A stretch of 64,000 bases of DNA from the NCBI GenBank assembly GCA_029932915.1, contig JAOZPE010000001.1:32222-96221 (forward strand), read 5' to 3'. A program made the position numbers and the translations under genes. The notes beneath the pieces are model-generated. The model was not told the origin of the DNA. It made no database searches and saw nothing but the letters and a program-made list of their open reading frames with translations. Positions within the stretch are counted from its first letter, which is position 1, and each line of letters opens with the position of its first letter. Positions 12,852 through 55,500 of this stretch are shown here, piece by piece. The stretch comes from Candidatus Krumholzibacteriia bacterium. GTDB taxonomy: Bacteria > Krumholzibacteriota > Krumholzibacteriia > JAJRXK01.

Positions 12852-13613
12852 TCAGTCCGCTTCCCCCTGCTCGGCGATCCACAGCTTCACGTCCCGCAGG
12901 AAGCGTCCCAGGACGGTGAGGCTCGCCCACAGGAAGCCGGGGAAACCGTCGCGGAATCCACCCCGGGCCACATAGAAACGCCAGAAGGTGGCCGGAGGGC
13001 TGCCCAGCAGATGTCCCAGCCGGAAGGGCCGCGGCCGGTCGGCGATCTCCAGACTGGTGTAGAGGTCCATCTTGCGCACGTAGGCGTCCACCCCTCCGAA
13101 GGTGTAGTGGTCGAGTGCCTCCTCCAGGCGTCCCACCGGCAGGCGGGGCGGAAGCACCACTCCTTCGTGGACCCGGCTGTCGGTGTAGTGGGCCCCCTCG
13201 CGCCGGAACAGCCTCAGAGGATAGTCCCGATCCAGCCCCATCGAGCGCATCTCGTGGCCCAGGATGAAGTTGCGCCGCCGCACCCGGTAGCCTCCCATGC
13301 CCACCAGTTGCTGGTTGGCCACCAGGTGTTCCCACTTGGCCGCCAGCTCCGTCGAGACCCGCTCGTCGGCGTCCAGGGCCAGGACCCAGTCGCCTTCGGC
13401 CAGTTCCAGGACCCGTTGCTTGGCATGGCCGAAGTCGTCGAAGACCCCCTCGAAGAGCCGCACCTTCGGGTGGGCCGAGGCGATCGAGAGCGTGGCGTCC
13501 CGGCTTCCGGTGTCCAGGACGACGATCTCGTCGGCCATCTCCTCCACGCTGGCCAGCGCCCCGGGGAGCTTGTCCTCCTCGTCGCGGACGATCATGGTGA
13601 CGCTCAAACGCAT
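12852..13613 (-). CDS. Family 2 glycosyltransferase
   Basis: The N-terminus is GT-A fold (MRLSVTMIVRDEEDKLPGALASVEEMADEIVVLDTGSRDAT) with a DxD-like ALDADE. Confidence 0.75.
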   Translation of the reverse strand: MRLSVTMIVRDEEDKLPGALASVEEMADEIVVLDTGSRDATLSIASAHPKVRLFEGVFDDFGHAKQRVLELAEGDWVLALDADERVSTELAAKWEHLVANQQLVGMGGYRVRRRNFILGHEMRSMGLDRDYPLRLFRREGAHYTDSRVHEGVVLPPRLPVGRLEEALDHYTFGGVDAYVRKMDLYTSLEIADRPRPFRLGHLLGSPPATFWRFYVARGGFRDGFPGFLWASLTVLGRFLRDVKLWIAEQGEAD

Positions 13614-13773
13614 GGATTCTCCCCCGATGCCGGTCGGCCGATGGGCTCAGGCTTGCCCCCGGCCCCTGTCGGTACTTCCTTGGGGCTCTGCCGCAGGACA
13701 GTATCGGCGCCGCCGGGGCCGGGCGTCAACGCCGCGACCCCCGGATGCGGTCTTTTCACAGGAGCAGGACAGG

Positions 13774-15003
13774 ATGGGCATCACGCAACGACAAGTGGAA
13801 GAAGCGCTGAAGACGGTGAAGTATCCGGGCTTCAGCCGGGACATCGTCTCCTTCGGACTGGTTCGGGAGATCCGCGTCGAAGGGGGCAAGGTGCACGTAC
13901 TCGTCGAACACCGGATCGACGACGCGGCCACCCTGGAGACCTTCCAGCAGGAGGCCCAACGGGCTCTCGATGGGATCGAAGGGGTCGAGGAGGCCCATAT
14001 CGAGTGGCGGGGCAAGGCTGCCTCCGAAGGGAAGGGCGATGAGAAGGGCACCCCGGCCGGGAAGCCCGAGGTATCGACCGCTTCCGCCGGCGCGTCGGCG
14101 AAGACCGCGACCAAGGGCGGCTACGTGGCCGCTCCCTCGCTCTCCACGCCTTCGCCGGATCCATGGGCCGATCAGGCGCCCCTGCCCGGGGTCAAGGCGG
14201 TCATCGCCGTGGCCAGTGCCAAGGGAGGAGTCGGCAAGTCCACGGTGGCCACCAACCTGGCCCTGGCCCTGTCGGCCAAGGGCAAGAAGGTCGGTCTGCT
14301 CGACGCGGACATCTACGGTCCGAGTCTTCCCACCATGATGGGAGTGAACGAGCGGCCGGAGGTGCAGGACGGCAACAAGATCCTTCCGGTGATGAAGGAG
14401 GGCATCGCGTGCATGTCCATCGGTTTCCTGGTGCCCCAGGACAAGGCCATGATCTGGCGCGGTCCGATGGTCATGGGGGCGATCAACCAGTTCCTGGACG
14501 ACGTGCGATGGAACGGCCTGGACGTGCTCATCGTCGATCTGCCCCCGGGAACCGGTGACGCCCAGTTGTCGCTGGCCCAGAAGGTTCCCCTGACCGGGGT
14601 GATCATGGTCACCACACCCCAGGACGTCGCGGTGATCGATGTCGTCCGCGGCATCCAGATGTTCGAGGAGACCAAGGTGCCCATCGTGGGCATCATCGAG
14701 AACATGAGTGTCTTCGTCTGCCCCCACTGTGGGCACGAGGAACACATCTTCGGCGAGGGCGGGGGCAAGCGGACCGCCGAGCGTTTCGGTGTGCCCTACC
14801 TGGGCGGTATCCCCCTGGAGCCCGCGGTGGTGGCCACCGGGGACGAAGGCCGCCCGGTGGTGGTGGCCCGGCCCGACAGCGCGTCGGCCAAAGCATTCCT
14901 GGCCGTGGCCGAGCAGGTGGAGCAGTATCTGCAGACCCCGCACGGGGGCCATCACCACGGACATGGACATGGCGGGCACAGCCATGCCGGTCACGGTCAC
15001 TGA
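13774..15003 (+). CDS. apbC: Fe-S cluster carrier ATPase Mrp/ApbC with N-terminal MIP18/DUF59 domain and C-terminal His/Gly-rich tail
   Basis: A DUF59-like N-terminus (EALKTVKYPGFSRDIVSFGLV) is followed by a deviant Walker A (SAKGGVGKST) and the CPHC cluster-ligand motif. The tail is PHGGHHHGHGHGGHSHAGHGH. Confidence 0.85.
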   Translation: MGITQRQVEEALKTVKYPGFSRDIVSFGLVREIRVEGGKVHVLVEHRIDDAATLETFQQEAQRALDGIEGVEEAHIEWRGKAASEGKGDEKGTPAGKPEVSTASAGASAKTATKGGYVAAPSLSTPSPDPWADQAPLPGVKAVIAVASAKGGVGKSTVATNLALALSAKGKKVGLLDADIYGPSLPTMMGVNERPEVQDGNKILPVMKEGIACMSIGFLVPQDKAMIWRGPMVMGAINQFLDDVRWNGLDVLIVDLPPGTGDAQLSLAQKVPLTGVIMVTTPQDVAVIDVVRGIQMFEETKVPIVGIIENMSVFVCPHCGHEEHIFGEGGGKRTAERFGVPYLGGIPLEPAVVATGDEGRPVVVARPDSASAKAFLAVAEQVEQYLQTPHGGHHHGHGHGGHSHAGHGH

Positions 15004-15089
15004 GACCGTTCCACCGGCGACCGATGAACACAGCGGCGTGACCATGGGGGCCACGCCGCCCGATCTTCCCCATCCGCTCGGCAGCGACG

Positions 15090-15548
15090 ATGAAACTGAT
15101 CGAGTACACCAGCGAGGAACTCTGTCTGGCCGGCCTGCGCGTGCCGGACAAGGAGAGCTGTCTCGATCGCATGTGCGCGCGGCTGGAGGAAGCCGGTCGC
15201 CTGAAGGAGCGGTCTGCGCTCCATCGGGCTCTTTTGGAGCGTGAGAAGGTGGAATCGACGGGCATCGGAGGCGGGATCGCCCTTCCCCATGCCCGCTGTG
15301 AGGACTTCGACGGCCACGCGGTGGCCATCGCCCATCTGGCCGAGCCCATCGACTACGGCGCTCCCGATGGGAGGCCGGTCGACCTGGTCTTCCTGTTGGC
15401 CGGATCCAGCCGCCGTCCCGGGCAGCAGCTTCGGGTCCTGGCCCGGATCTCCACCCTGGTGAGGATCGACTCCTTCCTGGCCGAGCTGCGGGCGGCGTCC
15501 ACCCCGGAGGCGATGTGCCGGGCCCTGCGGAAGGCCGAGGGGCTCTAG
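15090..15548 (+). CDS. ptsN: PTS EIIA(Ntr)-type regulatory protein (PtsN paralog 1)
   Basis: The EIIA type-2 active-site motif is present (ESTGIGGGIALPHAR). Confidence 0.7.
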   Translation: MKLIEYTSEELCLAGLRVPDKESCLDRMCARLEEAGRLKERSALHRALLEREKVESTGIGGGIALPHARCEDFDGHAVAIAHLAEPIDYGAPDGRPVDLVFLLAGSSRRPGQQLRVLARISTLVRIDSFLAELRAASTPEAMCRALRKAEGL

Positions 15549-15845
15549 GGCCCCGAGGGCGCAAGGAGATTCTCCGCCACTTGCTGCAGGTCGGGGGCAC
15601 TCCGGTGTTCCGGCCGGGTTGGGGTCCGTTCCCGGCGGCCGTCCTTTCCCCTTCCCCCCGGCGGGGCCATTTGCTAGTGTGGATTTCCTTTCCCATCCCG
15701 CGGATCGGTTTCGGCCTGCATTTCCGGTGGAGTCCTTGCCTCGAGGACGGCCGCCGGGGTGAGGTCGCTCTCCCGGAATTCCATCGGCGGCCTCCCTCCA
15801 TGGGCCGCCAGCCAAGGAGCTGGACCCTTGCGACGCACTTTCGGA

Positions 15846-18680
15846 ATGGTCACCACGACGACTGCTTCGACTCTTTCGATCCTTCTCTTCCTTCTTGTGC
15901 TGAGCCCCAACCTCGCGTCGGCCCAACCGACGGTGACCGATGTGCAGACCCCCGATCTGCTCTCGGTGCTGATCACCTTCTCCGAGGCGATCGATCCGAC
16001 GACGGGCAACACGGTTGCCAACTACCTCATCTACGAAAAGGATGACATCGGCAATCGTCCGCCCATCTCCTCGGCGGTCACTTCCGGCTCGCAGGTGACG
16101 CTCGCCCTGGATGCCGCGCTCACCGACGGCATGGTCTATTCGCTGCGTGTGCAGGGTGTGGAGAACACCTCGGGCGAGGTGATGGAGACGCAGATCGTCG
16201 ACTTCACCGCGTCGGGCCCGGACATCACGCCACCGGAGGTCACCGGGGCCTCGGCCGTCGACGACCAGACGGTGCGGATCGACTTCAACGAGGCCATCGA
16301 TGCGGGCAGCGCCGCCGACCCCGGTTCCTATCTGTTGTATCCCACCGCGCAGCCGGGCAGTCCCTTGACCATCACCGCCATCGGCACGGCCACCTCCAGC
16401 GTGACCCTCACCCTCGGTTCCTCCCTGAGCGACGGTGTCGAGTACACGGTGGAGGTCAGTGACGTCGAGGACCTCGCAGGCAACGCCATCGAGGACAACA
16501 ACACCGCCACCTTCACCTACACCGCCTCGTCTGCCGCCACCCCCATCGCCGACATCCAGGCCGATCCGGATTCGTGGGAAGGTCAGGTGGTGACCGTCGA
16601 GGGTGTGGTCTACATCCCCAGTGATTACCGGGGGACGGTCGTCAGCGGCTTCATCCAGGACGAGTCGGGCCGCGGCATCAACCTCTTCGGAACGGGGATG
16701 GATGTGGCGGCCCTGCAGACCGTGGGCAACCGGGTGCGGGTCACCGGCACGGTCACCTCGTACTTCACCACGGTGGAGATCCAGGACCCCACCGAGGTCA
16801 CCCTCATCAGCAGCGGCAATCCCCGTCCCACGCCGGTGCAGTTGGGAACGGGAGCGGCAGCGTCTACCCAGTGGGAAGGCACTTTCATTGAAGTGAGCGG
16901 GTCCATTCAGAGTCAGGTGGTTGCCAATGGTGCCGTCAACTACACCGTCAATGATGGGAGCGGTCCGATCATTGTGCGGGTGGTCGACACCCTGGGCGCG
17001 CCGAGCTTCTCCAACGGCACCACCATCACCGCCCGGGGAGCGGGCGCTCAGTACCAGAGCGACTACCAGGTGCTGGTGGGCCTGGCCAGCGATGTCTTCG
17101 AGGGCAACGGAGGGGACACGACGCCACCGCAGGTGATCAGCGCGAGTGGCTCGAACGAGACCTCGATCGTGGTGAATTTCAACGAGGCGCTCGATCCCAC
17201 CACCGCCCAGGTCTCGGCCAACTACGAGGTATATGAGAGTTCAGCCCCGTCGAACACCCTCACGGTGACTGCCGCTTCGCTGACGGGCAGCCGGGTCACC
17301 CTCACCCTGGCCTCGGCCATGAACGAGGGCACCTCCTACACGGTGACGGTTTCCAATGTCGAGGACCTCGCTGGCAATGTCATCGCCGGGAACAACACCG
17401 CGACCTTCACCTATACCCCATCCTCGGGGGCCACACCCATCGCCGACATCCAGGCCGATCCAGAGGCTTACGAGGGTCAAGAGGTCACCGTCGAAGGCGT
17501 GGTCTACATTCCGACGAACTACCGGGGAACGACCACCAGCGGCTTCATCCAGGATGAGTCCGGCCGCGGGATCAACCTCTTCGGCCGGGGCATGGACGTC
17601 CCTGCCCTGACGACGGTGGGCAACCGGGTGCGGGTGACCGGAACCATCGACATCTATTTCACCACGGTGGAGCTCACCAGCCCCACCGAGGTCACGCTCA
17701 TCAGCAGCGGCACGCGGATCCCGCCCACCCAGTTGAGCACCGGGGCGGCGGCGAACCACCAGTGGGAGGGCACCTTCATCGAGGTCTCCGGACCCATCCA
17801 GAGCCAGGCCGTCGCCGGCACCGCCATCAACTACACGGTGGACGACGGAAGCGGCCCGATCATCGTGCGGGTGGTGGACACCCTGGGTGCGCCGAGCTTC
17901 GACAACGGGACCACCATCACCGCTCGGGGAGCGGGTGGCCAGTACCAGAGTGACTTCCAGGTGCTGGTGGGCCTGGTCAGCGACATCTTCGAGGGCACCG
18001 GCGGCGACCTCACGCCGCCGCGGATCGAACGGGCCAGCCTGGAGACCGCGACCACGGTGATCATCGACTTCAGTGAGGGAGTCGAAGCCACTTCGGCCAC
18101 CACCGCCGACAACTACGAGGTGTTCCGGACCAACAGTCCCGGCGAGACGGCCGGGGTCACCGGCGTGGAGTTCGTCTCGGGCAGCAACAACCGCGTCCGT
18201 CTGCAGCTCGACCGCAGCGTGAGTCTGGACGAAGGCTGGTCGGTGCGGGTGCGCAACGTGGCCGATCTCAACGGCAACGCCATTTCGCCGAGCGGGGTGA
18301 CGGCGCGGCTCGAGGCCCTTCTCAAGGAAGAGATCGACCTGGAGGGACCGCCCTTCACCTTCCTGCCTCGCGACGGGGAACGCTATCCGTTGACCATCAA
18401 TCTCACCTCGGAGCTGGTTGACCACAACGCCGAGGTGGTCCTGAGGATCTTCAACATGAACGGGGCCCTGGTACGGACGCTCTATGACAGCCGGGTGGCT
18501 CCATTGAGTTCCGTCTTCAGGGACAACCGGGCGACCATCGAATGGGACGGTACCGATGACTACAAGGAATGGGTGCCGGCCGGAGCATACGTGGCGCACC
18601 TGCAGGTGCGCGAGGCTGGAGGTAGCGGTTCCAATGAGGTCCATATTCCCGTGGTCGTGGCCACGCGCCTGGATCGATAG
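15846..18680 (+). CDS. Large secreted surface protein: triplicated bacterial Ig-like (SbsA/Big_5-type) plus OB-fold module, with a C-terminal T9SS/FlgD-Ig-like sorting domain
   Basis: It has a signal peptide (MVTTTTASTLSILLFLLVLSPNLASA); the track ORF starts at 15759. A ~298-aa module is repeated, each copy containing TPPxV...NYxVY Ig-like domains and an OB-fold (WEGQVVTVEGVVYIP..GFIQDESGRGINLFG..VGNRVRVTG). The C-terminal ~80 aa (LRIFNMNGALVRTLYD...IEWDGTDD...GAYVAHLQV) fit the Por_Secre_tail/FlgD_ig pattern. Confidence 0.8.
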   Translation: MVTTTTASTLSILLFLLVLSPNLASAQPTVTDVQTPDLLSVLITFSEAIDPTTGNTVANYLIYEKDDIGNRPPISSAVTSGSQVTLALDAALTDGMVYSLRVQGVENTSGEVMETQIVDFTASGPDITPPEVTGASAVDDQTVRIDFNEAIDAGSAADPGSYLLYPTAQPGSPLTITAIGTATSSVTLTLGSSLSDGVEYTVEVSDVEDLAGNAIEDNNTATFTYTASSAATPIADIQADPDSWEGQVVTVEGVVYIPSDYRGTVVSGFIQDESGRGINLFGTGMDVAALQTVGNRVRVTGTVTSYFTTVEIQDPTEVTLISSGNPRPTPVQLGTGAAASTQWEGTFIEVSGSIQSQVVANGAVNYTVNDGSGPIIVRVVDTLGAPSFSNGTTITARGAGAQYQSDYQVLVGLASDVFEGNGGDTTPPQVISASGSNETSIVVNFNEALDPTTAQVSANYEVYESSAPSNTLTVTAASLTGSRVTLTLASAMNEGTSYTVTVSNVEDLAGNVIAGNNTATFTYTPSSGATPIADIQADPEAYEGQEVTVEGVVYIPTNYRGTTTSGFIQDESGRGINLFGRGMDVPALTTVGNRVRVTGTIDIYFTTVELTSPTEVTLISSGTRIPPTQLSTGAAANHQWEGTFIEVSGPIQSQAVAGTAINYTVDDGSGPIIVRVVDTLGAPSFDNGTTITARGAGGQYQSDFQVLVGLVSDIFEGTGGDLTPPRIERASLETATTVIIDFSEGVEATSATTADNYEVFRTNSPGETAGVTGVEFVSGSNNRVRLQLDRSVSLDEGWSVRVRNVADLNGNAISPSGVTARLEALLKEEIDLEGPPFTFLPRDGERYPLTINLTSELVDHNAEVVLRIFNMNGALVRTLYDSRVAPLSSVFRDNRATIEWDGTDDYKEWVPAGAYVAHLQVREAGGSGSNEVHIPVVVATRLDR
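16227..18011 (+). repeat. Intragenic tandem duplication: two ~891-894-bp units plus a partial third, encoding the Ig-Ig-OB module
   Basis: Near-identical DNA stretches recur, for example cccatcgccgacatccaggccgatcc at ~16540 and ~17440, and ggcttcatccaggacgagtc at ~16650 and ~17545. Protein units start at TPPEVTG (16227), TPPQVIS (17121) and TPPRIER (18012). Confidence 0.85.
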
Positions 18681-18693
18681 GAGCAGAAGACCA

Positions 18694-19611
18694 ATGCATA
18701 CGAAAAGAACCTCGATTCTCCTCCTGCTTCTCTTCGGTCTCCTGCTGCTCGGCAGCAGTGCAAGAGCCGCGTTCGACGACATCGCGGTGAGTCCCCGGGC
18801 CCGCGCCATGGGCGAGGCCTACGTGGCCGTCGGCGGCGATGCCTGGAGCTGGTACCACAATCCGGCTCTCCTGCCGTGGATCACTTCACCGGAGATCGCC
18901 GCGGCGGGCACCGAACCCAACGGCGGTGGTTACAACTCCCTGGGGACCATCGGCGGCATCCTTCCGGTGAAGGGTGGCTGGACGGGTCTGGCGGTCGGCC
19001 TGCGCCGCTACGGCGTCGACTACCGGGATGTCTCCCTCCTCACCGAGTACACGATCTCGATCGCGCAGGGCATCCAGTTGTTCAAGGACGACGCTTCGGG
19101 CGCTTCCTTCGGCTGGGCCCTCAACTTCTACAACCTCGATCTGGGCCAGAGCATCGGTCTGGCCGGGGACGGCACCGACGGCATCGACCCGGGCAACGCG
19201 TGGGCGATGGGCCTCGATCTCTCCGCGGTGGTTCAGGTGTGGGACCGCACCAAGGTGGGTTTCAACGCCAAGAACATCAACAGCCCGACCATCGGCGACG
19301 AGAACGAGGAGTTGCTGCAGCAGTTCAGCGTGGGGCTGAGCTATGAGCCGTACGAGGCGGTCATCACCGCGCTGGACATCCGCAGCCGGCCGGGGGAGGA
19401 CTTCCGTCTCCATGCGGGCGCCGAGTTCGGGGTGCTGGAGGTGCTCGATCTGCGAGCGGGTCTGGAGACCGATCCCGACAAACTCACCGCGGGTTTCGGC
19501 GTGCACCTGTACGGCGTCACCCTCGACTATGCCTTCTCCACCGGCGGCGGCGTTCTCGAGTCGACGCATCAGTTCGGCTTGAGCTATCGCTTCTCGGGAG
19601 GGGGGGAGTAG
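18694..19611 (+). CDS. Outer-membrane beta-barrel protein, FadL/PorV-like family
   Basis: It has a signal peptide (MHTKRTSILLLLLFGLLLLGSSARA). The N-terminal motif SPRARAMGEAYVAVGGDAWSWYHNPALL matches the FadL/PorV-type signature (ARAxxMGGA...D...YNPA). The protein has alternating amphipathic strands and ends in ..YRFSGGGE. It sits 13 bp after the giant gene. Confidence 0.6.
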   Translation: MHTKRTSILLLLLFGLLLLGSSARAAFDDIAVSPRARAMGEAYVAVGGDAWSWYHNPALLPWITSPEIAAAGTEPNGGGYNSLGTIGGILPVKGGWTGLAVGLRRYGVDYRDVSLLTEYTISIAQGIQLFKDDASGASFGWALNFYNLDLGQSIGLAGDGTDGIDPGNAWAMGLDLSAVVQVWDRTKVGFNAKNINSPTIGDENEELLQQFSVGLSYEPYEAVITALDIRSRPGEDFRLHAGAEFGVLEVLDLRAGLETDPDKLTAGFGVHLYGVTLDYAFSTGGGVLESTHQFGLSYRFSGGGE

Positions 19612-19612
19612 C

Positions 19613-22168
19613 GTGTACGCTCCGCGCAAACAACTGGGGCGCGGAATTCTCGTGGCACTGGCCTTCAGCCTGTTGCTCGCGGCGCCGGTCCGCGCTCAAT
19701 ACGAGCAGGGAGACTCCCGGCGAGAGGCCATCGAGCCGAGGCAGCTCAAGGGCGAGGTGGACCTGGCCGGAGGGAAGCTCGATCTGAATCGCGCGACCCG
19801 CGATCAGATCCGTTCCCTTCCCATTCCTCCTGAAGTCGCCGACGCCATCTGGGAATACCGCACCTATCGCAGTTACTTCAGCTCCATCTACGATCTGAGC
19901 AAGGTCGAGGGCGTCACGCCCGAGATGATCAAGGAGCTGATCCCCCTGGTGGCCACCATGCCGCCGGAGAAGCAGGAAGCCTGGGTACGTCGCTTCGACG
20001 CCTCGTTCCGGGCGATGCAGCGATTCCTGAGCCGTGAAGGGGCCAGCGAGGAGCTCGCCGACGAATACCGCGACCTCCTGCTGGAACCGCGCAACATCAA
20101 CGATCTGTCCATCTATGCCCTGGAGAGCTACCAGAACGTCTCCCCGGTGGATGCCACCGCCATCCTCAAGGCGCGCAAGAGGTCGGGCGGCATCCAGAAC
20201 CAGCGGCAACTGCGCAGCGTCGACGGCCTGACCTACTGGGCCTACCGCAACCTGCGGGACTACGTCGTCTACGAACCGCCGGCGGGGGAGATGAAGCTGC
20301 ACGGTGGGGCCCAGGTGCAGGTGTACAACACCCCGTACATGCTCGACGACCGGGACATCCTCACCGAGGACTACGTGGGGGCCCCATCCCGCGACTTCGA
20401 CGAGGGGACGCCCTACGGGATCAAGAATCTGGACAGCGCGAATCCGGCCATCCTGAGCAAGTTGAAGCTGCGGCTGGGCAACCAGTGGAAGGCCGGCATG
20501 AGCACCTTCCGCAATGTCGGTGAGCGCAACGTGGCCGAGACGCTCAAGGGCTTCATCGAGTGGCACAACCCGCGGGCGAAGTCCTACCGCCTGGACAAGT
20601 TCGTGCTGGGCAATTTCCGGATCGCCTTCGGACAGGGCCTGGTGATGGACAACACCGACTACTTCCTCAGTCGCAAGACCGGCACGGGCTTCAACAAGCG
20701 TCCACGGGGCTTGATCGGTGACATGAGCCGATCCTACGAGTTCGCCCTGCGCGGCGCGGCCGCAGAAGCCGCCCTGGGGAATCTGCACGTCGTCGGTTTC
20801 TACAGCAACACCGACAAGGACGGCATCCTCAACCTCGACGAGAACGGCAACGCGGTGAGCATCAACAAGTACGTGGTGGGCAAGCCGCGGTTCGAGAACA
20901 GTGAATACGAGTTGATGAACACCGCCATCCGGCGGGGCGCCTTCGACGAGGAACTCTACGGTGGTGTTCTGCACTATCAGTTCGTGCCGGGAACCTTCGT
21001 GGGAATCTCGGGCTACGAGGCCCGCCACGACCTTCCCTGGGATCCGAAGGTCTCCACCCTGGTGACCGAGGTAGGTCGCTTGGAGGCTCGGGACAACGAA
21101 CTGTTCAACGCCTACGATTCGACCCAACTGGGCAACTTCCGACGCGTTCTGGGCGCTGAATTCCAGACCGTGATCAGCAACGTCGCCCTGGCCGGCGAGT
21201 ATGCCAAGCTCGACTCGAACCCCACCGGCGGCATCTTCTCCAATGCTCCCGACGCCATGGTGTTCACCGGCTACACCCAGTGGTCGAACTTCAACATCTT
21301 CGCGCTCTATCGTGACTACGATGTGGGCTTCGACAATCCCTATGCCCGGCCGTTCGGGCAGGACAACCGTTACGAGCAGACCTTGCTCGGCGATCCCTTC
21401 CGTTTGAATTCACCTCTGTACAGTTGGCTGGAGTCGACCACGCCGCAGACCAAGGCCGAGCAGGGGATCTTCCTGCAGACGCGCTACCGGATCAGCCGTC
21501 AGCTCACGATCTCCGGCCTGGAATTCGATCAGTGGAAGCGGAAGGCCGACGGACAGAGCCAGCATCGCTACACCTTGCGTCTGGAGTACGCGCCGATCTG
21601 GCCGCTGCGTTTCCGTCTGCGTGAACGCTACAGCGACCGGGCACCCGAGGAGCTGAGCGACAACCGGCGTTTCAAGAGCTGGGATACGCGGCTCGAGCTG
21701 CGGGCGCGGCTGAGCGGCTACGACGAATTGCGCTTGCTCTACAGCAATACCAACACCCAGTTCGCGCCGCGGCCCCGTCTGGGAGGACCGGCCGATCCGG
21801 ACGGCAGCAACTTCACCCCGCTGGCGCAGGAAGCCGCCCCGGGCCAGGCCATCCAGGCCATGCTGGTGCACAACGTCAACGATCGTCTCCAGTTCACGTT
21901 CAGCACCGAGCTCTACGAGGGCTTCCTCTGGAACTTCGAAGACAACGAGTTCGTCGTGGTCGACGGCAACGGCATGCGCAACTGGTTCCTCATCCAGAGC
22001 CGACTCGATGACCACTTCCTCGTTCGATTCAAGATGACCAACGATCGTCAGCGGACCCGTGACAACCTGGAGATCCGCGATTATGCCAATTCCACCCCCA
22101 GCGAGTTGCGCGCGGGCGACAAGCGTCAGTACACCGCTTTCCGCCTCCAGCTCGACTACAACTTCTAG
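19613..22168 (+). CDS. Outer-membrane beta-barrel protein with two N-terminal ComEA-like helix-hairpin-helix DNA-binding motifs
   Basis: It has a signal peptide (LVALAFSLLLAAPVRA). HhH motifs are present (DLNRATRDQIRSLPIPPEVADAI, and DLSIYALESYQNVSPVDATAILKARKRSGGIQNQRQL). A ~650-aa Tyr/Gly-rich region follows with alternating strands, and the C-terminus is ...QLDYNF (aromatic terminal residue typical of OMPs). The track start is GTG. Confidence 0.6.
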   Translation: MYAPRKQLGRGILVALAFSLLLAAPVRAQYEQGDSRREAIEPRQLKGEVDLAGGKLDLNRATRDQIRSLPIPPEVADAIWEYRTYRSYFSSIYDLSKVEGVTPEMIKELIPLVATMPPEKQEAWVRRFDASFRAMQRFLSREGASEELADEYRDLLLEPRNINDLSIYALESYQNVSPVDATAILKARKRSGGIQNQRQLRSVDGLTYWAYRNLRDYVVYEPPAGEMKLHGGAQVQVYNTPYMLDDRDILTEDYVGAPSRDFDEGTPYGIKNLDSANPAILSKLKLRLGNQWKAGMSTFRNVGERNVAETLKGFIEWHNPRAKSYRLDKFVLGNFRIAFGQGLVMDNTDYFLSRKTGTGFNKRPRGLIGDMSRSYEFALRGAAAEAALGNLHVVGFYSNTDKDGILNLDENGNAVSINKYVVGKPRFENSEYELMNTAIRRGAFDEELYGGVLHYQFVPGTFVGISGYEARHDLPWDPKVSTLVTEVGRLEARDNELFNAYDSTQLGNFRRVLGAEFQTVISNVALAGEYAKLDSNPTGGIFSNAPDAMVFTGYTQWSNFNIFALYRDYDVGFDNPYARPFGQDNRYEQTLLGDPFRLNSPLYSWLESTTPQTKAEQGIFLQTRYRISRQLTISGLEFDQWKRKADGQSQHRYTLRLEYAPIWPLRFRLRERYSDRAPEELSDNRRFKSWDTRLELRARLSGYDELRLLYSNTNTQFAPRPRLGGPADPDGSNFTPLAQEAAPGQAIQAMLVHNVNDRLQFTFSTELYEGFLWNFEDNEFVVVDGNGMRNWFLIQSRLDDHFLVRFKMTNDRQRTRDNLEIRDYANSTPSELRAGDKRQYTAFRLQLDYNF

Positions 22169-22178
22169 GGAGTATCCC

Positions 22179-23543
22179 ATGCGTGGCAGTGTTTGCAGAA
22201 GCATACGGATCCTGACCCTCGTCCTGGCGGCGGCGTCGCTTCTCGCCTCCCCCGCGCGCGCATTCACCACTCTGGATGCGGCATACGGTACGCCATGGGA
22301 TGCGGAGAACCCGCGCACGGCGGCCATGGGTTCGGTCGGGGCGGCTCTGTACCAGGGGGCGGGAAACCTCGTCTCGAATCCGGCGATGCTCGCCTACATG
22401 GACGGCCGCATCCTGGTGGAGCTCAACGGGGGATTTCTCCAGGCCAACGAGGACCGCTATCAGCCCCTGTACAATTCCTTCGACTCGTACGTGACCGATA
22501 CCGTCATCGCGAGCAACCGCAACAGCTACGGGCAACTGCAGGGCGGTGTCCTGTTCAGCCTTTCCCGCGAGCATGCGATGAGCTTCGGGATCGGCGTGTT
22601 CGACCGCTACATCTTCGACTACGACTACAGTGAGGAGATCCGCGATCCCTCTCCCTTCGTCGACACCCGCGACGCGGTCATCCAGTTGCGTCAGTACCAT
22701 ATCGAGGGAAGACTCCGCTCGATCACCGCGGGCTGGGGGATGGAAGTGATTCCGCGCCTGTCGCTGGGTCTGAGCGTGAACTACTACCTCGGAAAGTTGC
22801 AGCACCGGGTGGCGACCTCGACCACGCCTACCTACGAGAACACCTTCCTGAGCGATCCGGGCCCGGCGGCCTTCGACCACGATCTCGACGGCTGGAGTGT
22901 CGCGCTGGGTCTGGAGGGAAGGGTTTCCGACCGCCTCGATCTCGGAGTGAACTTCGAGAGCGGCTTCACCGTCGAGGGGGCCATCACCTCCATGGATTCG
23001 ACGATCGGGACCTGGGTGCCCTACGACCGCGAGGAGACCGTGCTCGCCGTGGGTGGGGAGGATGTGAAGATCAAGTATCCTTCGACCCTGCGGGCGGGGA
23101 TGACCTTCCATCCGCGCAACCAGCTCAAGACCACCTTCTCGTTCGACCTGGTCCGCCGCTTCTGGGAGGGCGTTTCCAGCGATAGCTACCGTACGGCGGC
23201 CTTTGGCGGCGGATACACGCTGCGGGACACCTGGGACGTCCGGGTGGGTCTGGAGCATGTCTTCTACAACAAGGTGCCGGCCCGCTTCGGTTTTCGTTAT
23301 CTTGAGAACTACGCCGACCCCGAGTCACAGCGGTCGATCTTCTCGGCGGGGACGGGTTGGTCGACGGCGGGTCTTACCCTGGAAGCGACGGTGCAGTACC
23401 ACCGGCAGACCACCCGCCAGGACTATCTCTTCGACCGCACCCTGGAGTGGACGGACCGTCCGCCGGACGTTCCCGACGACGGGCTCTCCAAAGTGGAGGA
23501 TGGAACGGTGACCCTCCTGCTGGGGGTTTCCCGGCGCTTCTAG
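22179..23543 (+). CDS. Outer-membrane beta-barrel protein, FadL/PorV-like family (second copy)
   Basis: It has a signal peptide (ILTLVLAAASLLASPARA). The N-terminal motif is ENPRTAAMGSVGAALYQGAGNLVSNPAML. The C-terminus is ...LLLGVSRRF (terminal Phe). Confidence 0.6.
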   Translation: MRGSVCRSIRILTLVLAAASLLASPARAFTTLDAAYGTPWDAENPRTAAMGSVGAALYQGAGNLVSNPAMLAYMDGRILVELNGGFLQANEDRYQPLYNSFDSYVTDTVIASNRNSYGQLQGGVLFSLSREHAMSFGIGVFDRYIFDYDYSEEIRDPSPFVDTRDAVIQLRQYHIEGRLRSITAGWGMEVIPRLSLGLSVNYYLGKLQHRVATSTTPTYENTFLSDPGPAAFDHDLDGWSVALGLEGRVSDRLDLGVNFESGFTVEGAITSMDSTIGTWVPYDREETVLAVGGEDVKIKYPSTLRAGMTFHPRNQLKTTFSFDLVRRFWEGVSSDSYRTAAFGGGYTLRDTWDVRVGLEHVFYNKVPARFGFRYLENYADPESQRSIFSAGTGWSTAGLTLEATVQYHRQTTRQDYLFDRTLEWTDRPPDVPDDGLSKVEDGTVTLLLGVSRRF

Positions 23544-23555
23544 CCTCTGGAAGGG

Positions 23556-25010
23556 ATGACGCTCTTGGAGCGCGGAATTCGTTCGTTCATCGGCCGTGCC
23601 GCCGTTGTCTCTGTGACGGCGGCGCTGCTTCTGCTGGGCGCCTGCTCGTCGAAGGCACCGGTGGAGGGAGTGATCCTTCCACCCAGCGATTCGATCAGCG
23701 TGGTCGATCGCAGCGTACTGTGGCACACCGACGAGCCGGCCCGGGGTCTCGTGCGCTACGGTCTCGATCGTGGGCATCTCGATCACGTCGCCTATCCCGC
23801 CGCGGCCGCCCGTGAGGACCGCTCCTTCGTCAAGGAACACCGGGTGACCCTGCTGGACGTGCAGGCCGGCCGGACCATCTACTACCAGGTGGGGGTGGAG
23901 ACGAGTCTCAGCGGCTGCCGTTTCACCGCCATCGATTCCTTCGTCTCGCAGCTGGGTCCGGCGCCGGGCGTGCTGACGTCGACCATGGTCCACATCGGCT
24001 TCGGTGATGCGCACGTGTTGACCATGCCCACCAACGGACGCCATGTGCTCATCGACGCCGGTACGCGCGAAGCGGCCGTCTCGGTGCGTCAGTATCTGCT
24101 GGAGCATGGCATCGACGCCTTCAGCGGCATGCTCGCCACCCACGTGCACATCGATCACATCGGAGGCATCCTCGGCTACGATCGCGGTGGCATCCTGGCG
24201 AGTCACCCGCCTTCGATCTTCTACGATTCGGCACGCAAGGACGTGGGCTCGGAGAAGTACGCCTACAGCGAGGTGCAGTCGATGATCGCCGAGGAGAACG
24301 TCGACGAAGCCGTCCTGCATCGCTTCGATACCTCATCGAGCGTGGCGGCGCTGCAATGGGATCCCGAGGTCGAGGTGACGGTGTTGAACAGTGGCACTCC
24401 CGACGACTACGTCCCGGACGGCTACGAGGGTACGGACATCAACAACGAGTCGATCGTGTTGCTCATCGCCTACGGCGACGTCCGCTTCGTCATCGGCGGC
24501 GACGCCGAGCAGGAGGCCGAGGCCAGCATGCTGGCGGCCTTCGCTCCCGCGGACCTGGAAGTGCAGTACTACAAGGTGCAGCACCATGGTCTCTCCGATG
24601 CCTCGAGCACGGCGTGGGTGAACACGTTGAGGCCGCGGGTGGCGTTCATCCCCAACACGGCGTGGTCGTGGGACGGAGACCTCGATGGGGCCATCAGCCA
24701 GACCACGGGACGGCTGGAGGCCATCGGAGCGCAGATCTATGTCATCGACGACGTGCCGATGATCGGTGAGCCCCGCTCGATGGGCATCCAGCACAACATC
24801 ACCTTCGCCACCGACGGTGTCAGCTATGAGGTGCGGGTGGAGACGGCACAACAGACGGCACCGCACAAGATGGCCTCCACCGCCTCGTGTGTCCGCGGCG
24901 ATCCCGACCTGCAGAATCTCTTTCCTCTCCATGACCACGAGGGCGATTCCGGCCTCGACAGGGTGAAGACCGACTCTCCGCCGCCGACGGCGGACAGCTC
25001 CCAGGAGTAG
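23556..25010 (+). CDS. Lipoprotein with purple-acid-phosphatase-N/Fn3-like domain fused to a ComEC-type metallo-beta-lactamase-fold domain (putative nuclease)
   Basis: It has a lipobox (LLLLGACSS). The ComEC/Rec2-type MBL pattern is present: VHIGFGDAHVL....GRHVLIDAGT...AFSGMLATHVHIDHIGG and NESIVLLIAYGDVRFVIGGDAE...YYKVQHHGLSDAS (compare vGqGDa..LID.G / lilTH.d.DHiGG / lKvgHHGS..S). Confidence 0.75.
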   Translation: MTLLERGIRSFIGRAAVVSVTAALLLLGACSSKAPVEGVILPPSDSISVVDRSVLWHTDEPARGLVRYGLDRGHLDHVAYPAAAAREDRSFVKEHRVTLLDVQAGRTIYYQVGVETSLSGCRFTAIDSFVSQLGPAPGVLTSTMVHIGFGDAHVLTMPTNGRHVLIDAGTREAAVSVRQYLLEHGIDAFSGMLATHVHIDHIGGILGYDRGGILASHPPSIFYDSARKDVGSEKYAYSEVQSMIAEENVDEAVLHRFDTSSSVAALQWDPEVEVTVLNSGTPDDYVPDGYEGTDINNESIVLLIAYGDVRFVIGGDAEQEAEASMLAAFAPADLEVQYYKVQHHGLSDASSTAWVNTLRPRVAFIPNTAWSWDGDLDGAISQTTGRLEAIGAQIYVIDDVPMIGEPRSMGIQHNITFATDGVSYEVRVETAQQTAPHKMASTASCVRGDPDLQNLFPLHDHEGDSGLDRVKTDSPPPTADSSQE

Positions 25011-25014
25011 AGCC

Positions 25015-26697
25015 ATGCGCGCAGTTTCCGCTCTCGCTATCTTGTTCATTCTCGCCGCGACGGGTCTGGCCGTCTCCGATGCTTCGGCCGGAGAGACCGT
25101 GCGCCTTCATCTCATCTGGACCAACGACATCCATGGCCACGTGGGCAATGAGGAAGCGCGCTTCATGAATCCCGAGTTCCCCCCGCCTCTGGGTGGGGGG
25201 GCCTCGGCGGCGGCCTACGTGCAGAAGGTGCGCGCCGCGTGTGAGAAGGACCCCGACTCGGACGTGCTGCTGCTCGACGCCGGCGATACCTGGCAGGGCG
25301 CCCCGGTGGGCACGCTCAGTGCGGGCCGGGTCATGGAAGCTTACTTCGATGCCATGCAGTACGATGCGGTCACCGTCGGCAACCACGAGTTCGACAAGGG
25401 CCTCGACGTTCCCATCCGCATGTCACAGGCCATGCGGCAGAAGTTCGTCTGCGCAAACATCTACAAAGAGGGCACGGAGGAAATGGTCGACTGGACCGAG
25501 CCCTACCGGGTGGTGGAGAAGGCCGGCCTGCGCATCGGCATCGTCGGGGCGGTCACTCCTTCCACGAAGTCGATGGCCTTCGCCGAGAACGTGGCCGGGA
25601 TCGATTTCGGCCCGATTGCCCCGGTGCTGGAGAAGTACCGTGACATCCTTCTGGAGCGCGAACACGTCGATCTGGTGGTGGCTCTGATTCACGAGGGTTT
25701 GCCCTACAACCCGGACGAAGGCTGGGAAGATCTGGTGCGACGGGTGAAGGAGGGCGTCGATCTGCGGCTGCATGCGCGCAGTGCCATGGAGATCGCCCAC
25801 GTGGTCCACGGGATCCCCATCTTCGTCGGCGGCCACACCCACCGCGGCTACCGCAAGCCGTGGATCGATCCGGTGACCCAGGCCATGGTCTTCGAGACCT
25901 TCGGCAACGGCTCATCGGTGGGACACGTGATCATCCTCATCGACCGCCCCACCGACCAGGTGGTCGGTTACGAGAGCCCCCGGCGCGACGGCACCCTGGT
26001 GACCCTGTTCGAGGACGAGTGGTGGCCGGATGAGAAGATGGCGGCCGAACTCGAACCCTATATCCACGAAGCCCGGGCCGGTCTGGACGAGACGGTGGGG
26101 CGCTCGGCGGTCGAATTGAGCCGCCGCGGCGGACCTCTCTCGCGGATGGGGATCCTCGTGACCAGCGCCATGCTCGAGGCCACCGGGGCCGATTTCGCCT
26201 TCTCCAACACCGGCGGCCTGCGCAGTGATCTGCCTCCGGGCCGGATCACCCTGGGCGACCTCATCCGGGTCCTGCCCTTCGGCAACGCCCTGGCCACCGT
26301 CGAGATGGACGGAGCCATGATCCGCAAGATCTTCGAACGCAAGAGCGGGCGTCGCAGCAGCGGCATCGCCTTCTCCGGGGTGAAGGTGGTCGTCGATCCG
26401 GACGCCCCGCAGGGACGCCGGGTCCTCGAGCTGACCCTGCTCGACGGCACGCCCATCGTGCCGGGGCGGCGCTACCTCGTGGCGACCTCGGACTTCCTCA
26501 TGGAGGGCAACAGCGGCCTGGACTTCCTGGCCGAGATCCCGCCGGATCAGGTCAACTACACCGGCATCCTCACCCGCGACGCCCTGGCCGAATACCTGCG
26601 CAAGCACAGCCCGGTGGCGCCTCATGCGGACGACCGGTGGAGGGAGAAGGTGGGGGGGACGCCCGCCGACTATCTGCAGACCCCGGCCGTCCAGTAG
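25015..26697 (+). CDS. Secreted bifunctional metallophosphatase/5'-nucleotidase (UshA-like)
   Basis: It has a signal peptide and calcineurin-like motifs (LIWTNDIHGHV, DAGDTWQG, GNHEFD, GGHTH). A C-terminal 5'-nucleotidase substrate domain is present (FSNTGGLRSDL..GNAL). Confidence 0.85.
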   Translation: MRAVSALAILFILAATGLAVSDASAGETVRLHLIWTNDIHGHVGNEEARFMNPEFPPPLGGGASAAAYVQKVRAACEKDPDSDVLLLDAGDTWQGAPVGTLSAGRVMEAYFDAMQYDAVTVGNHEFDKGLDVPIRMSQAMRQKFVCANIYKEGTEEMVDWTEPYRVVEKAGLRIGIVGAVTPSTKSMAFAENVAGIDFGPIAPVLEKYRDILLEREHVDLVVALIHEGLPYNPDEGWEDLVRRVKEGVDLRLHARSAMEIAHVVHGIPIFVGGHTHRGYRKPWIDPVTQAMVFETFGNGSSVGHVIILIDRPTDQVVGYESPRRDGTLVTLFEDEWWPDEKMAAELEPYIHEARAGLDETVGRSAVELSRRGGPLSRMGILVTSAMLEATGADFAFSNTGGLRSDLPPGRITLGDLIRVLPFGNALATVEMDGAMIRKIFERKSGRRSSGIAFSGVKVVVDPDAPQGRRVLELTLLDGTPIVPGRRYLVATSDFLMEGNSGLDFLAEIPPDQVNYTGILTRDALAEYLRKHSPVAPHADDRWREKVGGTPADYLQTPAVQ

Positions 26698-26762
26698 GCT
26701 CCGCCGATCCGGCCCCTCCCTCGAAGGCTCCCGCCGTCTCGCGGGCTGCGGGCACGTCGTCG

Positions 26763-26810
26763 TTTTGCAAGTCATCGCAGCTTTTGCAAGCCTTCCTCCG
26801 CTTGCGCAAA
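26763..26810. promoter_or_regulatory. Triple TTTTGCAAG motif (two direct copies 19 bp apart plus one inverted, imperfect copy CTTGCGCAAA) upstream of the AAA+ gene
   Basis: The copies lie at 26763-71 and 26782-90 (direct) and 26801-10 (inverted). They sit in the only AT-richer part of the 300-bp intergenic gap. Confidence 0.4.
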
Positions 26811-27004
26811 CGTGCCAATCGGGGCCGAGGAGGTCCATTCCCGCCCCGGACGGTGCGAGGCAAGCGGCCGCCGGCTTCCCCGGCCTCGCTCTCGTGAGTT
26901 CCCCTGCGTTCCCATGATTCCCCGTAGAGGAGCGCGCTTACGGGCGTGGTGGCCTGGAGCCGGCCGGTGGCCGGTCACGGGTTGGGAGGGGGGACGCCGG
27001 AGCC

Positions 27005-28405
27005 GTGGGGACGGTCCTGATCCTGCATATCCCGATGGTTCCAGGAACACCGCCTCACATCCCGGGGGGACCAGGGGCGGTGGTTGCGGCCCGTGCCGTC
27101 CCCATGGAGGAGATCGCGTTGACCCAACCCGCACCGTGCCCCGTCGTTCCCGATCAGCCGGTCCGTCTCGATCCCACCCGGCGCAACCCCCAGCTCGTCC
27201 GCTTCCACGAACTGATGGAACGGATGGTGGTGGGTCAGCCGGGAGCGCTGGAGACGGTCACGAACTCCTTCTCGCGTCTGCTGGCGGGGATCCACGATCC
27301 GGAGAGCCCGATCCTGACCATGATGCTGCTGGGACCGACCGGCGTGGGCAAGACCGAGACCGTACGCTGTCTGGCCCAGGCCCTCTTCGGAAGCCGCCGG
27401 GCCTTCACCCGGGTGAACTGCCAGGAGTACTCGGCCCACTACAACCTCTCGAAGTTGCTGGGCAGCCCACCGGGCTACGTCGGTGGCGAGATCAAACCCC
27501 TGCTGAGCCAGGAGAACCTCGACCGGCACTACAAGAAGGCCATGGAGGAGGGGTTGGGGATCTTCCAGGACGACCTGGGCCGGATCGGCGGTGGCCCGGA
27601 CGGGGACCACGCGCTCTCGCTCATCCTCTTCGACGAGATCGAGAAGGCCCATCCCAAGCTGTGGAACATGCTGCTGGGCATCCTCGAGGATGGCACCCTG
27701 GTGCTGGGCAACAACGAAGAGGTCGATTTCACCCACAGCATCATCGTCCTGACCACCAACGTGGGCAGCGAGGCGATGGGCAAGCACCTCTCCCACGAGA
27801 ACATCGGTTTCGTCAGCGGTGAGGACCTCGAGCAGATGGACCGTGACATCCACGAGGCGGCGCTGCGGGAGGCCCGCAAGGTCTTCCCCTTCGAATTCCT
27901 GAATCGCTTCGACGAGCTCATCACCTACGACACCCTCAAGGAATCGCACCTGTACCAGATCCTGGACAATCTCATCGCCGACATCCACATCCGCAGCATC
28001 GGTTGCACCCAGCCCTTCCTGTTGAAGGTGGAGGAGGCGGCCAAGCGCAAGCTGGTGGAGGAGGGCTACGACCCCCGTTTCGGCGCCCGTCCCCTGCGGC
28101 GGGCGGTCGAGACCCGCCTGGTGACGCCCATCGGACACCTGATCTCCAGTGGCCAGGTGGTGCGCGGAGACCTGGTCACCGTCGACTGGGTCGATGGAGA
28201 ATGGGTCTTCGGGAAGGAATCGGGAGTGATGACCGCCGAGGAGATCGCGGCCTTCGAGGCCCGTCAGGCCGAGAAGGAGAGAAGCCGCGATCTGGATGGG
28301 ATGGACGACGGGGGCGAGGCCAAGCGGATCGTCGAGGAACTCGACGAGGTGGTGGCCCACGGGCACATGCTCGGTGACGGTTCGGACCTTCCCGGCGGGC
28401 TGTAG
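27005..28405 (+). CDS. Stand-alone Hsp100/Clp-type AAA+ ATPase consisting of a single D2-like module (AAA_2 plus ClpB_D2-small)
   Basis: VVGQPGALETVTNSFSRLLAG precedes Walker A (LLGPTGVGKTE), Walker B (LILFDEIEKAHPKLWNMLLGILEDGTL), sensor 1 (LTTNVGS) and a D2-small domain (RFGARPLRRAVE). There is no N-domain, D1 or M-domain. The start is uncertain (Met candidates at 27005, 27035, 27104). Confidence 0.75.
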   Translation: MGTVLILHIPMVPGTPPHIPGGPGAVVAARAVPMEEIALTQPAPCPVVPDQPVRLDPTRRNPQLVRFHELMERMVVGQPGALETVTNSFSRLLAGIHDPESPILTMMLLGPTGVGKTETVRCLAQALFGSRRAFTRVNCQEYSAHYNLSKLLGSPPGYVGGEIKPLLSQENLDRHYKKAMEEGLGIFQDDLGRIGGGPDGDHALSLILFDEIEKAHPKLWNMLLGILEDGTLVLGNNEEVDFTHSIIVLTTNVGSEAMGKHLSHENIGFVSGEDLEQMDRDIHEAALREARKVFPFEFLNRFDELITYDTLKESHLYQILDNLIADIHIRSIGCTQPFLLKVEEAAKRKLVEEGYDPRFGARPLRRAVETRLVTPIGHLISSGQVVRGDLVTVDWVDGEWVFGKESGVMTAEEIAAFEARQAEKERSRDLDGMDDGGEAKRIVEELDEVVAHGHMLGDGSDLPGGL

Positions 28406-55374: not shown

Positions 55375-55500
55375 TGAAGGGAGACTTTGACCGATGGCAT
55401 CGAGTGCTGGTAATGTTCACTTCCTGCGGCGAGACCCCCGGTGGCTTCGTCCCTTGTTTTCTCCATTCCTCGACAGCCTCTCATACTCGGAGGAGGGCAG

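Follow-up and report, generated by a model that had tools for sequence, protein, structure and literature searches.

We analysed a stretch of 64,000 nt, here called the window, from contig JAOZPE010000001.1 of a Candidatus Krumholzibacteriia bacterium, focusing on a forward-strand gene whose product carries a metallo-beta-lactamase (MBL) fold domain of the type known from the competence protein ComEC. A first-pass annotation made from the letters alone had described the product as such a domain detached from ComEC and presented as a lipoprotein. The window has a G+C content of about 65% and contains numerous spurious overlapping open reading frames (ORFs). The ORF at 23556-25010 (+) is a real gene: its third-position G+C content (GC3) of 0.84 is as in the real genes of the window, and identical copies of the 484-aa protein have been called on three public metagenome contigs. 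The source organism is uncultured and represented solely by metagenome scaffolds. The gene is composed as follows:

23556..25010, + strand: gene of the putative MBL lipoprotein, 484 aa, ATG start (Pfam, NCBIfam, AlphaFold2 (AF2) model, 52-member alignment)
23556..23645, + strand: predicted signal peptide and lipobox LLGA-C, codon of Cys30 at 23643-23645 (read from the sequence)
23697..23945, + strand (aa ~48-130): Fn3-like or purple-acid-phosphatase-N-like (PAP-N-like) beta-sandwich (PF16656 match, AF2 model)
23958..24851, + strand (aa ~135-432): ComEC-type MBL-fold domain (TIGR00361, PDB, Foldseek, alignment)
24141..24158, + strand (aa 196-201): HVHIDH with H196, H198, D200 and H201, the metal ligands of MBL motif 2 (invariant, n=52)
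24501..24503, + strand: D316 in GGDAE, a putative metal ligand (invariant, aligned with the Asp of 'sADiE' in ComEC)
24573..24593, + strand (aa 340-346): KVQHHGL with K340, H343, H344 and L346 (aligned with 'kvpHHGS' of ComEC)

We determined the affiliation of the MBL domain by sequence, profile and predicted fold. The Pfam model Lactamase_B matches the protein above its gathering score (E 3.3e-8), and the top NCBIfam model is TIGR00361 (ComEC_Rec2; E 1.6e-13), whose match is limited to model positions 444-635 of 663, that is to the C-terminal MBL part. The best sequence matches in the PDB are to ComEC, namely to Moorella glycerini's beta-lactamase-like domain (9ic4) and to a full-length ComEC (30bt). 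A profile built from 52 relatives scored 95.8 bits against 9ic4 and 92.5 bits against 30bt, in comparison to about 33 bits for Pce/CbpE and 34 bits or less for true beta-lactamases; Apyc1 also scored low. The AF2 model, with a predicted local distance difference test score (pLDDT) of 87.9, showed 9ic4 as its top Foldseek match as well (E 1.4e-18, target-normalised template modelling score (TM) 0.87, root-mean-square deviation 2.5 A). Pce ranks second, followed by generic MBLs and CPSF73. The authors of 9ic4 found Pce to be the closest structure to the ComEC domain and RNase J the closest nuclease (PMC12455585), so that the order of neighbors obtained for our protein is the same as that reported for ComEC's own domain. 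Alignment with ComEC domains shows, from end to end of the domain, the common blocks GxGD, TH.H.DH.GG, NNxS(I/V)VL, GD.E, K..HHG and a C-terminal TDG strand. The closest characterised relative of the MBL domain is the nuclease domain of ComEC, as the first-pass annotation had proposed, and the best matches of hidden Markov models do not fall in non-nuclease MBL subfamilies, an outcome that would have counted against it.

The protein belongs to the ComEC-type MBL subfamily without being a ComEC. Neither Competence (PF03772) nor DUF4131 (PF13567) gave a Pfam match, and no hydrophobic segment other than the signal peptide is present, in agreement with the earlier statement that a competence channel is missing. 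We rejected a full ComEC since both the channel domain and the oligonucleotide/oligosaccharide-binding (OB) fold are absent and the score of 49.7 bits against TIGR00361 compares with a curated cut-off of 190. A true beta-lactamase was rejected as well, the class B3 matches being short and far under their cut-offs.

The set of ligands for two metals (H-x-[H/D]-x-D-H, the Asp of GD and the His of HHG) is complete. H196, H198, D200, H201, D316, K340, H343 and H344 are invariant in all 52 sequences, and L346 nearly so. The HxHxDH motif named by the first-pass annotation is present as HVHIDH and aligns with H598-x-D600-x-D602-H603 of the M. glycerini domain, where mutating H598, D600, D602, H603 or D700 abolishes activity (PMC12455585). 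The 'sADiE' Asp matched by D316 is taken to be this D700, and the equivalent of ComEC K690 is retained as K340. The second ligand position holds His, as in Pce, versus the Asp typical of ComEC. The motif formerly given as KVQHHGS was misread; the sequence is KVQHHGL, and its Leu is the one nearly invariant in the close family. The putative DNA-binding residues given for M. glycerini ComEC include H725 and S728, and S728A lowers the rate approximately 3-fold (PMC12455585); judged from the numbering they would correspond to H343 and L346.

The type II signal peptide of a bacterial lipoprotein has a positively charged n-region, a hydrophobic h-region and a lipobox whose last residue, an invariant Cys, is among the first ~35 of the protein. 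The N-terminus of the protein fits this pattern, as R6, R9 and R14 are followed by a core of hydrophobic residues (aa 15-27) and by L-G-A-C30; Cys30 is kept in at least 90% of the 52 relatives. More distant relatives that combine Fn3-like and MBL parts were inspected by eye, and most of them start with a hydrophobic stretch closing on [G/A/S]-C. Based on these sequence features and the conservation of the Cys, the protein is probably exported and lipid-anchored. The segment between lipobox and MBL domain matches PF16656 (PAP-N) at aa 52-117 with E 2.6e-5 and 25.1 bits, the gathering score being 30. Matches to the same model were found in 14 of the 52 relatives (E up to 0.01, best E 1.6e-8), and the AF2 model is all-beta with pLDDT above 90 at aa 48-130. 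The lipobox of the earlier description is borne out. During the searches we also observed giant proteins of 1400-4400 aa (P0198, P0206, P0212, P0228, P0235 and others), each with 10-25 stretches matching the Fn3/PAP-N-like part of the profile. From this multiplicity the domain appears to be a repeat unit of large, presumably surface, proteins.

The close family comprises about 56 proteins of 440-498 aa with 40-80% identity over their full length, one of them named Candidatus Krumholzibacteriia. A genome scan located close members in metagenome-assembled genomes (MAGs) of Krumholzibacteriia. Relatives with 36-39% identity are found in Candidatus Eisenbacteria MAGs, among them a chromosome of 4.16 Mb, and in a single bin that bears the label Fibrobacteraceae. 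In the protein search that gave the close family, matches beyond it fall to E 1e-13 or weaker and are almost all genuine ComEC. When the family profile was searched against 1.84 billion representative proteins, 236 proteins passed a limit of E ≤ 1e-30, and the number rose to 18,596 with a limit of E ≤ 1e-10. About 30 additional clusters of 400-470 aa span both the Fn3-like and the MBL part. The nearest outgroups in this search are mostly standalone MBL proteins of 290-500 aa rather than proteins of ComEC length; annotations sampled from them read 'competence protein ComEC', 'competence-like protein [Methanolobus]' and 'MBL fold metallo-hydrolase [Bacillota]'. Since thousands of standalone ComEC-like MBLs exist, detachment from ComEC alone is neither unusual nor new. 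The family stands out by its lipobox, its Fn3-like domain and its genomic context, and also by a conserved C-terminal extension. In the literature searched we found no experimentally characterised standalone ComEC-like MBL.

Six genes of the same orientation, with gaps of 1-13 nt between them, form a cluster in which the MBL gene comes fifth, and all six products carry an N-terminal export signal. The other members of the cluster are:

15846..18680, + strand (ORF opens at 15759): large exported Big_5 protein, ~944 aa from the internal Met
18694..19611, + strand: PorV/PorQ-family-like outer-membrane protein, 305 aa (NF033709 1.1e-14, below cut-off; signal peptide)
19613..22168, + strand: helix-hairpin-helix (HhH) barrel protein, 851 aa (signal peptide; HHH_3 6.8e-15; comEA models; AF2)
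22179..23543, + strand: FadL/Toluene_X-like outer-membrane protein, 454 aa (PF03349 3.2e-8; weak BamG and PorV matches; signal peptide)
25015..26697, + strand: UshA-like 5'-nucleotidase (5_nucleotid_C 4.8e-34, Metallophos; UshA 2.5e-48; type-I signal peptide)

The FadL-like gene ends 12 nt upstream of the MBL gene and the 5'-nucleotidase gene begins 4 nt downstream of it. A scan of 15000-27300 revealed no promoter-like sites and one terminator-like site at chance level.

For the large Big_5 protein the Met at 15846 is the likely true start. It matches Big_5 (4.7e-33), ExeM_NucH (4.8e-8 at aa 295-382) and the C-terminus of PorU (2.6e-4), and two of its segments resemble the part of ExeM/NucH nucleases that precedes the catalytic domain on its N-terminal side. 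The 973-aa ORF at 15759-18680 shows an internal duplication of two ~300-aa blocks starting '...ATPIADIQADP..EGQ.VTVEGVVYIP..YRG'; both blocks match the N-terminal part of the ExeM/NucH model, and the C-terminus weakly resembles the C-terminal domain of PorU, the sortase of the type IX secretion system. An OB-fold match was weak (5e-4). A PDB sequence search with the putative OB-like region returned a match at chance level only, and the OB-fold assignment therefore stays weak. Counterparts of the Big_5 protein at other loci bear LTD domains.

The 851-aa protein combines ComEA-like HhH modules at aa ~55-215 with a beta-barrel at aa ~229-851 and ends in ...DYNF. Its AF2 model (pLDDT 78) is helical at aa ~55-215, followed by about 26 beta elements, from which an outer-membrane barrel of about 24-26 strands is predicted. 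Foldseek returned only generic large barrels (SlpA, ushers, MtrB, TonB-dependent receptors) with TM values of 0.2-0.3, so that we assign the protein to no specific family. The HhH-barrel family has more than 200 members, some of which are named 'DNA uptake protein ComE-like'. Literature searches for a ComEA-barrel fusion or for the six-gene cluster yielded none.

We then compared the surroundings of related MBL genes. The order of the six genes is kept at loci whose MBL is 36-52% identical, in MAGs labelled Krumholzibacteriia as well as Eisenbacteria. Usable flanks were available for 12 independent MBL loci; in 10 of these the MBL gene is followed immediately downstream by the 5'-nucleotidase. 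The exported MBL, as the nuclease candidate, and the exported 5'-nucleotidase are therefore encoded together and co-conserved. The first-pass annotation had pointed to the adjoining 5'-nucleotidase and had proposed a nuclease plus phosphatase pair. The identity of the neighbor and the pairing, kept across MAGs labelled as different candidate phyla, hold up, but the pair is only one part of a conserved six-gene cluster. A distant Fn3+MBL lipoprotein (P0207; locus L037, 576-21281) is located between two gene sets: on one side adenine deaminase, a major facilitator superfamily (MFS) transporter and a complete Bmp-type nucleoside ATP-binding cassette (ABC) transporter, on the other side a second ABC transporter followed by genes for an LTD/FlgD_ig protein, an outer-membrane protein and an HhH protein. 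This neighborhood provides independent support for a tie to nucleic-acid breakdown and nucleoside salvage.

We consider it probable, at roughly 60%, that the protein is an exported, lipid-anchored ComEC-type phosphodiesterase that degrades DNA or oligonucleotides in the cell envelope, as one step of an operon for the scavenging of nucleic acids. The large surface protein and the ComEA-like HhH beta-barrel protein would capture extracellular DNA on or within the outer membrane, and the DNA-binding proteins of the cluster would present DNA or oligonucleotides to the lipoprotein. The lipoprotein would cut the DNA via its two-metal centre (H196, H198, D200, H201, D316, H343/H344), giving 5'-nucleotides or short 5'-phosphorylated oligomers as with ComEC, which the putatively co-transcribed 5'-nucleotidase would turn into nucleosides and phosphate for uptake. 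The identity of the domain, the conservation of its ligands, the export signals and the conserved operon are shown by the sequence data, whereas we infer the nuclease activity and its substrate, the compartment, which may be the periplasm or the cell surface, and what the partner proteins do.

Several reports are in line with this reading. Metal-dependent DNase activity has been demonstrated for ComEC domains (PMC8579336, PMC12455585); the domain requires Mn, cuts both as an endonuclease and as a 5'->3' exonuclease and leaves 5'-phosphate and 3'-OH ends, and products with a 5'-phosphate are suited to a 5'-nucleotidase (PMC12455585). On its own the domain binds DNA weakly, and fusing a DNA-binding domain to it (an OB fold, ComEA or Sac7d) has a stimulating effect (PMC12455585). 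The cluster encodes a ComEA-like HhH domain and possibly OB-like segments, which may be compared with these boosters. In Vibrio cholerae, a nuclease together with a periplasmic 5'-nucleotidase is an established route for the use of extracellular DNA as phosphate source (PMC4714964). Regarding the compartment, the position of the HhH modules ahead of the barrel has to be considered. Soluble domains ahead of outer-membrane barrels are usually periplasmic, as in BamA, LptD, ushers and TonB-dependent receptors. It may therefore be in the periplasm that the HhH modules act in a ComEA-like manner, with digestion taking place there. By this analogy a periplasmic digestion is speculation, and surface exposure is also possible.

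A nuclease such as the one proposed could also serve to remodel the extracellular DNA of a biofilm matrix during attachment or dispersal, and not nutrition. ExeM and Dns serve biofilm control in addition to nutrition (PMC6085458, PMC3929857), and the cluster does encode a large adhesin-like Big_5/LTD surface protein. However, the conservation of the 5'-nucleotidase, together with the tie to adenine deaminase and a nucleoside importer, speaks for products that are consumed, and we regard a role in the matrix instead of nutrition as improbable. The two roles overlap and are not mutually exclusive.

A number of observations weigh against a role of the lipoprotein in DNA scavenging. Two of the 12 MBL loci have neither the 5'-nucleotidase nor outer-membrane genes nearby. 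Conversely, three distant HhH-barrel loci keep the outer-membrane genes and the 5'-nucleotidase without an MBL gene:

L034, 5040-15797: cluster without MBL gene
L035, 5166-15638: cluster without MBL gene
L036, 3997-15683: cluster without MBL gene

At these loci the order is an LTD/Big_5 giant surface protein, a 296-aa outer-membrane protein, the HhH barrel, a 420-448-aa outer-membrane protein and the 5'-nucleotidase; a recognisable nuclease domain was not found in their giant proteins. Given such related clusters, the MBL lipoprotein is accessory to a broader five-gene core. Within the protein itself, Leu346 takes the place of the Ser of HHGS, a putative substrate contact, and the ComEC block N-x-x-G-H-P, whose Arg and His (N-R-x-G-H-P) belong to the conserved substrate-side residues of ComEC, is missing, with N-T-x-x-x-W-D/N-G found instead. 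The closest structure other than ComEC, Pce, is a non-nuclease phosphodiesterase, and the OB-fold assignment of the surface protein comes from weak, sub-threshold matches. The MBL domain furthermore has an isoelectric point (pI) of about 4.5 versus 5.6-10 for most of the compared ComEC domains. This last point is confounded: all cluster proteins checked (window 15759-28405), including a cytoplasmic AAA+ protein, are acidic with pI values of 4.1-6.2, and such an acidic local proteome weakens arguments on DNA binding from charge. Apart from this, the values suggest a generally acidic proteome, possibly that of a saline habitat.

The Pce-like His at the second ligand position, the missing substrate-side residues of ComEC and the acidity led us to keep a phosphodiesterase of the Pce/CbpE kind as an alternative. 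Instead of nucleic acid it might act on head groups of the phosphorylcholine or glycerophosphodiester kind, on phosphodiesters linked to a polymer or on cyclic nucleotides, and the neighboring phosphatase would cleave the phosphomonoesters released. Pce is second in both fold and profile matches and is also the closest structure to ComEC's own domain, and weak matches to Apyc1 were seen in 15 of the 52 members. On the other hand, the profile score to ComEC lies about 60 bits above that to Pce and no choline-binding repeats were found by Pfam. The neighboring enzyme belongs specifically to the 5'-nucleotidase family, the operon contains ComEA-type DNA-binding domains, and P0207 has genes of nucleoside transport and adenine deaminase beside it. 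We therefore judge this alternative unlikely, ranking it a little above the biofilm role.

Another explanation takes its start from the homology to ComEC and from the ComEA-like HhH domain in the same operon. Since ComEC versions without the beta-lactamase-like domain exist (PMC6299819, PMC12455585), the lipoprotein could be a competence nuclease acting in trans, which supplies the strand-degrading function of ComEC, with the HhH barrel and the surface protein as the uptake route for transformation; that the nuclease domain of ComEC is the closest characterised homologue is in its favor. The constant partner, however, is a catabolic 5'-nucleotidase without a role in transformation, the distant member P0207 is tied to nucleoside import and adenine deaminase, and the MBL is absent from otherwise identical clusters. 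The window genes that were examined included none for a pilus, ComEC, ComF or DprA; the two ORFs elsewhere in the window that have about the length of a ComEC encode DsbD and a VanY-domain protein. This explanation seems to us about as improbable as the biofilm role.

Closer to DNA scavenging is the possibility that the cluster as a whole is a pilus-independent machine importing DNA across the outer membrane as food. An LTD/ExeM-like receptor would capture DNA and the ~24-26-strand barrel would conduct it; the N-terminal ComEA-like HhH of the barrel would serve as a periplasmic ratchet, and the MBL lipoprotein and 5'-nucleotidase would digest the DNA in the periplasm. We hold this extension to be doubtful, if somewhat less so than a Pce-like activity. 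If true, those modules of the competence apparatus that work outside the cytoplasm (a ComEA HhH, an OB-like binder and a ComEC nuclease) would have been put together anew on scaffolds in the outer membrane to serve catabolism, in Krumholzibacteriota, Eisenbacteria and relatives.

The position of the cluster on the chromosome is conserved as well. Locus L034 has the same flanking synteny as the window. Upstream, at 13297-15548 (+), we found genes for a Mrp/NUBPL-type ParA ATPase with FeS_assembly_P domain and for an EIIA-2 protein of the phosphotransferase system (PTS). This pair also precedes the cluster in L004, L006 and L034, which indicates the conserved chromosomal position. About 380 nt after the operon, at 27080-28405 (+), follows a gene for a ClpB-like AAA+ protein (AAA_2 and ClpB_D2-small, ~441 aa), which holds the same position in L004, L006, L015 and L034 and gave partial PADLOC matches to PDC-M37B and DolB. 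Elsewhere in the window, 1472-4027 (+), 55441-59170 (+) and 60814-63090 (-) encode DsbD, a pair of M16 peptidases and the VanY-domain protein, respectively, all of them ordinary envelope housekeeping unrelated to DNA uptake.

PADLOC and NCBIfam also gave weak partial matches for the MBL protein, to Avs1a, LmuA, PDC-M48B and MBLs associated with DRT systems (18-34 bits), and MBL nucleases of defence systems resemble the ComEC domain (PMC12799240). An anti-phage effector nuclease akin to the MBLs of Avs1, Lamassu or Hachiman type is nevertheless extremely improbable, and we rejected a defence system: the protein is exported and lipid-anchored by our prediction, unlike cytoplasmic effectors of the Avs1a, LmuA or HamM type, its neighbors are outer-membrane proteins and a 5'-nucleotidase instead of a protease, nucleoside triphosphatase (NTPase) or sensor partner, and the locus is chromosomal with synteny conserved across phyla.

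Neither the lipoprotein family nor the six-gene outer-membrane operon was found in the literature searched, and both appear to be undescribed. Extracellular DNA is a major pool of phosphorus and nitrogen in sediments and soils, whose consumers and machinery are known for few cultured groups. The operon represents a concrete candidate for DNA scavenging in uncultured lineages of the FCB group (Krumholzibacteriia, Eisenbacteria). If this holds true, the nuclease fold of ComEC would occur as a free-standing envelope enzyme, and a function would be at hand for the large pool of 'ComEC-like' standalone MBLs, which are often annotated as competence proteins. With its ComEA-like domain on a large barrel, the 851-aa protein may represent a new mode of DNA handling at the outer membrane.

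In comparison to the MBL domains of ComEC/Rec2 (M. glycerini BLACT 9ic4, PMC12455585; B. subtilis C-terminal domain, PMC8579336), the lipoprotein belongs to the same subfamily, shares the ligand positions and would likewise be located outside the cytoplasm. It differs in having neither a fused channel nor an OB fold and in a putative lipid anchor instead of transmembrane helices. It adds the N-terminal Fn3/PAP-N-like domain and loops at aa ~205-225 and ~398-412, and it is more acidic. Ligand 2 is His instead of Asp, HHGS has its Ser exchanged for Leu and the NxxGHP block is lacking; the gene lies in the context of a catabolic operon. Standalone ComEC-like MBLs (~290-500 aa; Bacillota, archaea and others) have the lack of a channel in common with it, but most of them consist of the MBL alone; the family described here adds the lipobox, the Fn3-like domain, the C-terminal extension and a specific outer-membrane operon. 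Pce/CbpE, the teichoic-acid phosphorylcholine esterase of S. pneumoniae (2bib, 1wra), is the second-closest solved structure. It is a secreted surface enzyme with a binuclear MBL phosphodiesterase centre and His at ligand 2, yet it reaches only ~33 bits versus 96 for ComEC, has choline-binding repeats that our protein lacks and differs in substrate and genomic context.

The order of a putative nuclease followed by a 5'-nucleotidase is the same logic as in Vibrio cholerae and Shewanella (Xds/Dns or ExeM; periplasmic UshA/CpdB/PhoX; PMC4714964, PMC6085458), with the nuclease located at the surface or in the envelope in both cases. The surface protein of the cluster has LTD and ExeM-N-terminal-like segments in common with these systems. 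The nuclease fold differs, being MBL in the window versus EEP or EndA-type there. The nuclease and nucleotidase genes of Vibrio and Shewanella are not known to form one operon with three outer-membrane barrels, unlike those of the window. With ComEA, the periplasmic DNA receptor and ratchet (PMC3879209), the 851-aa protein shares the same HHH_3/ComEA-type module; in the window, however, this module is fused to a beta-barrel of ~620 residues and encoded beside catabolic enzymes.

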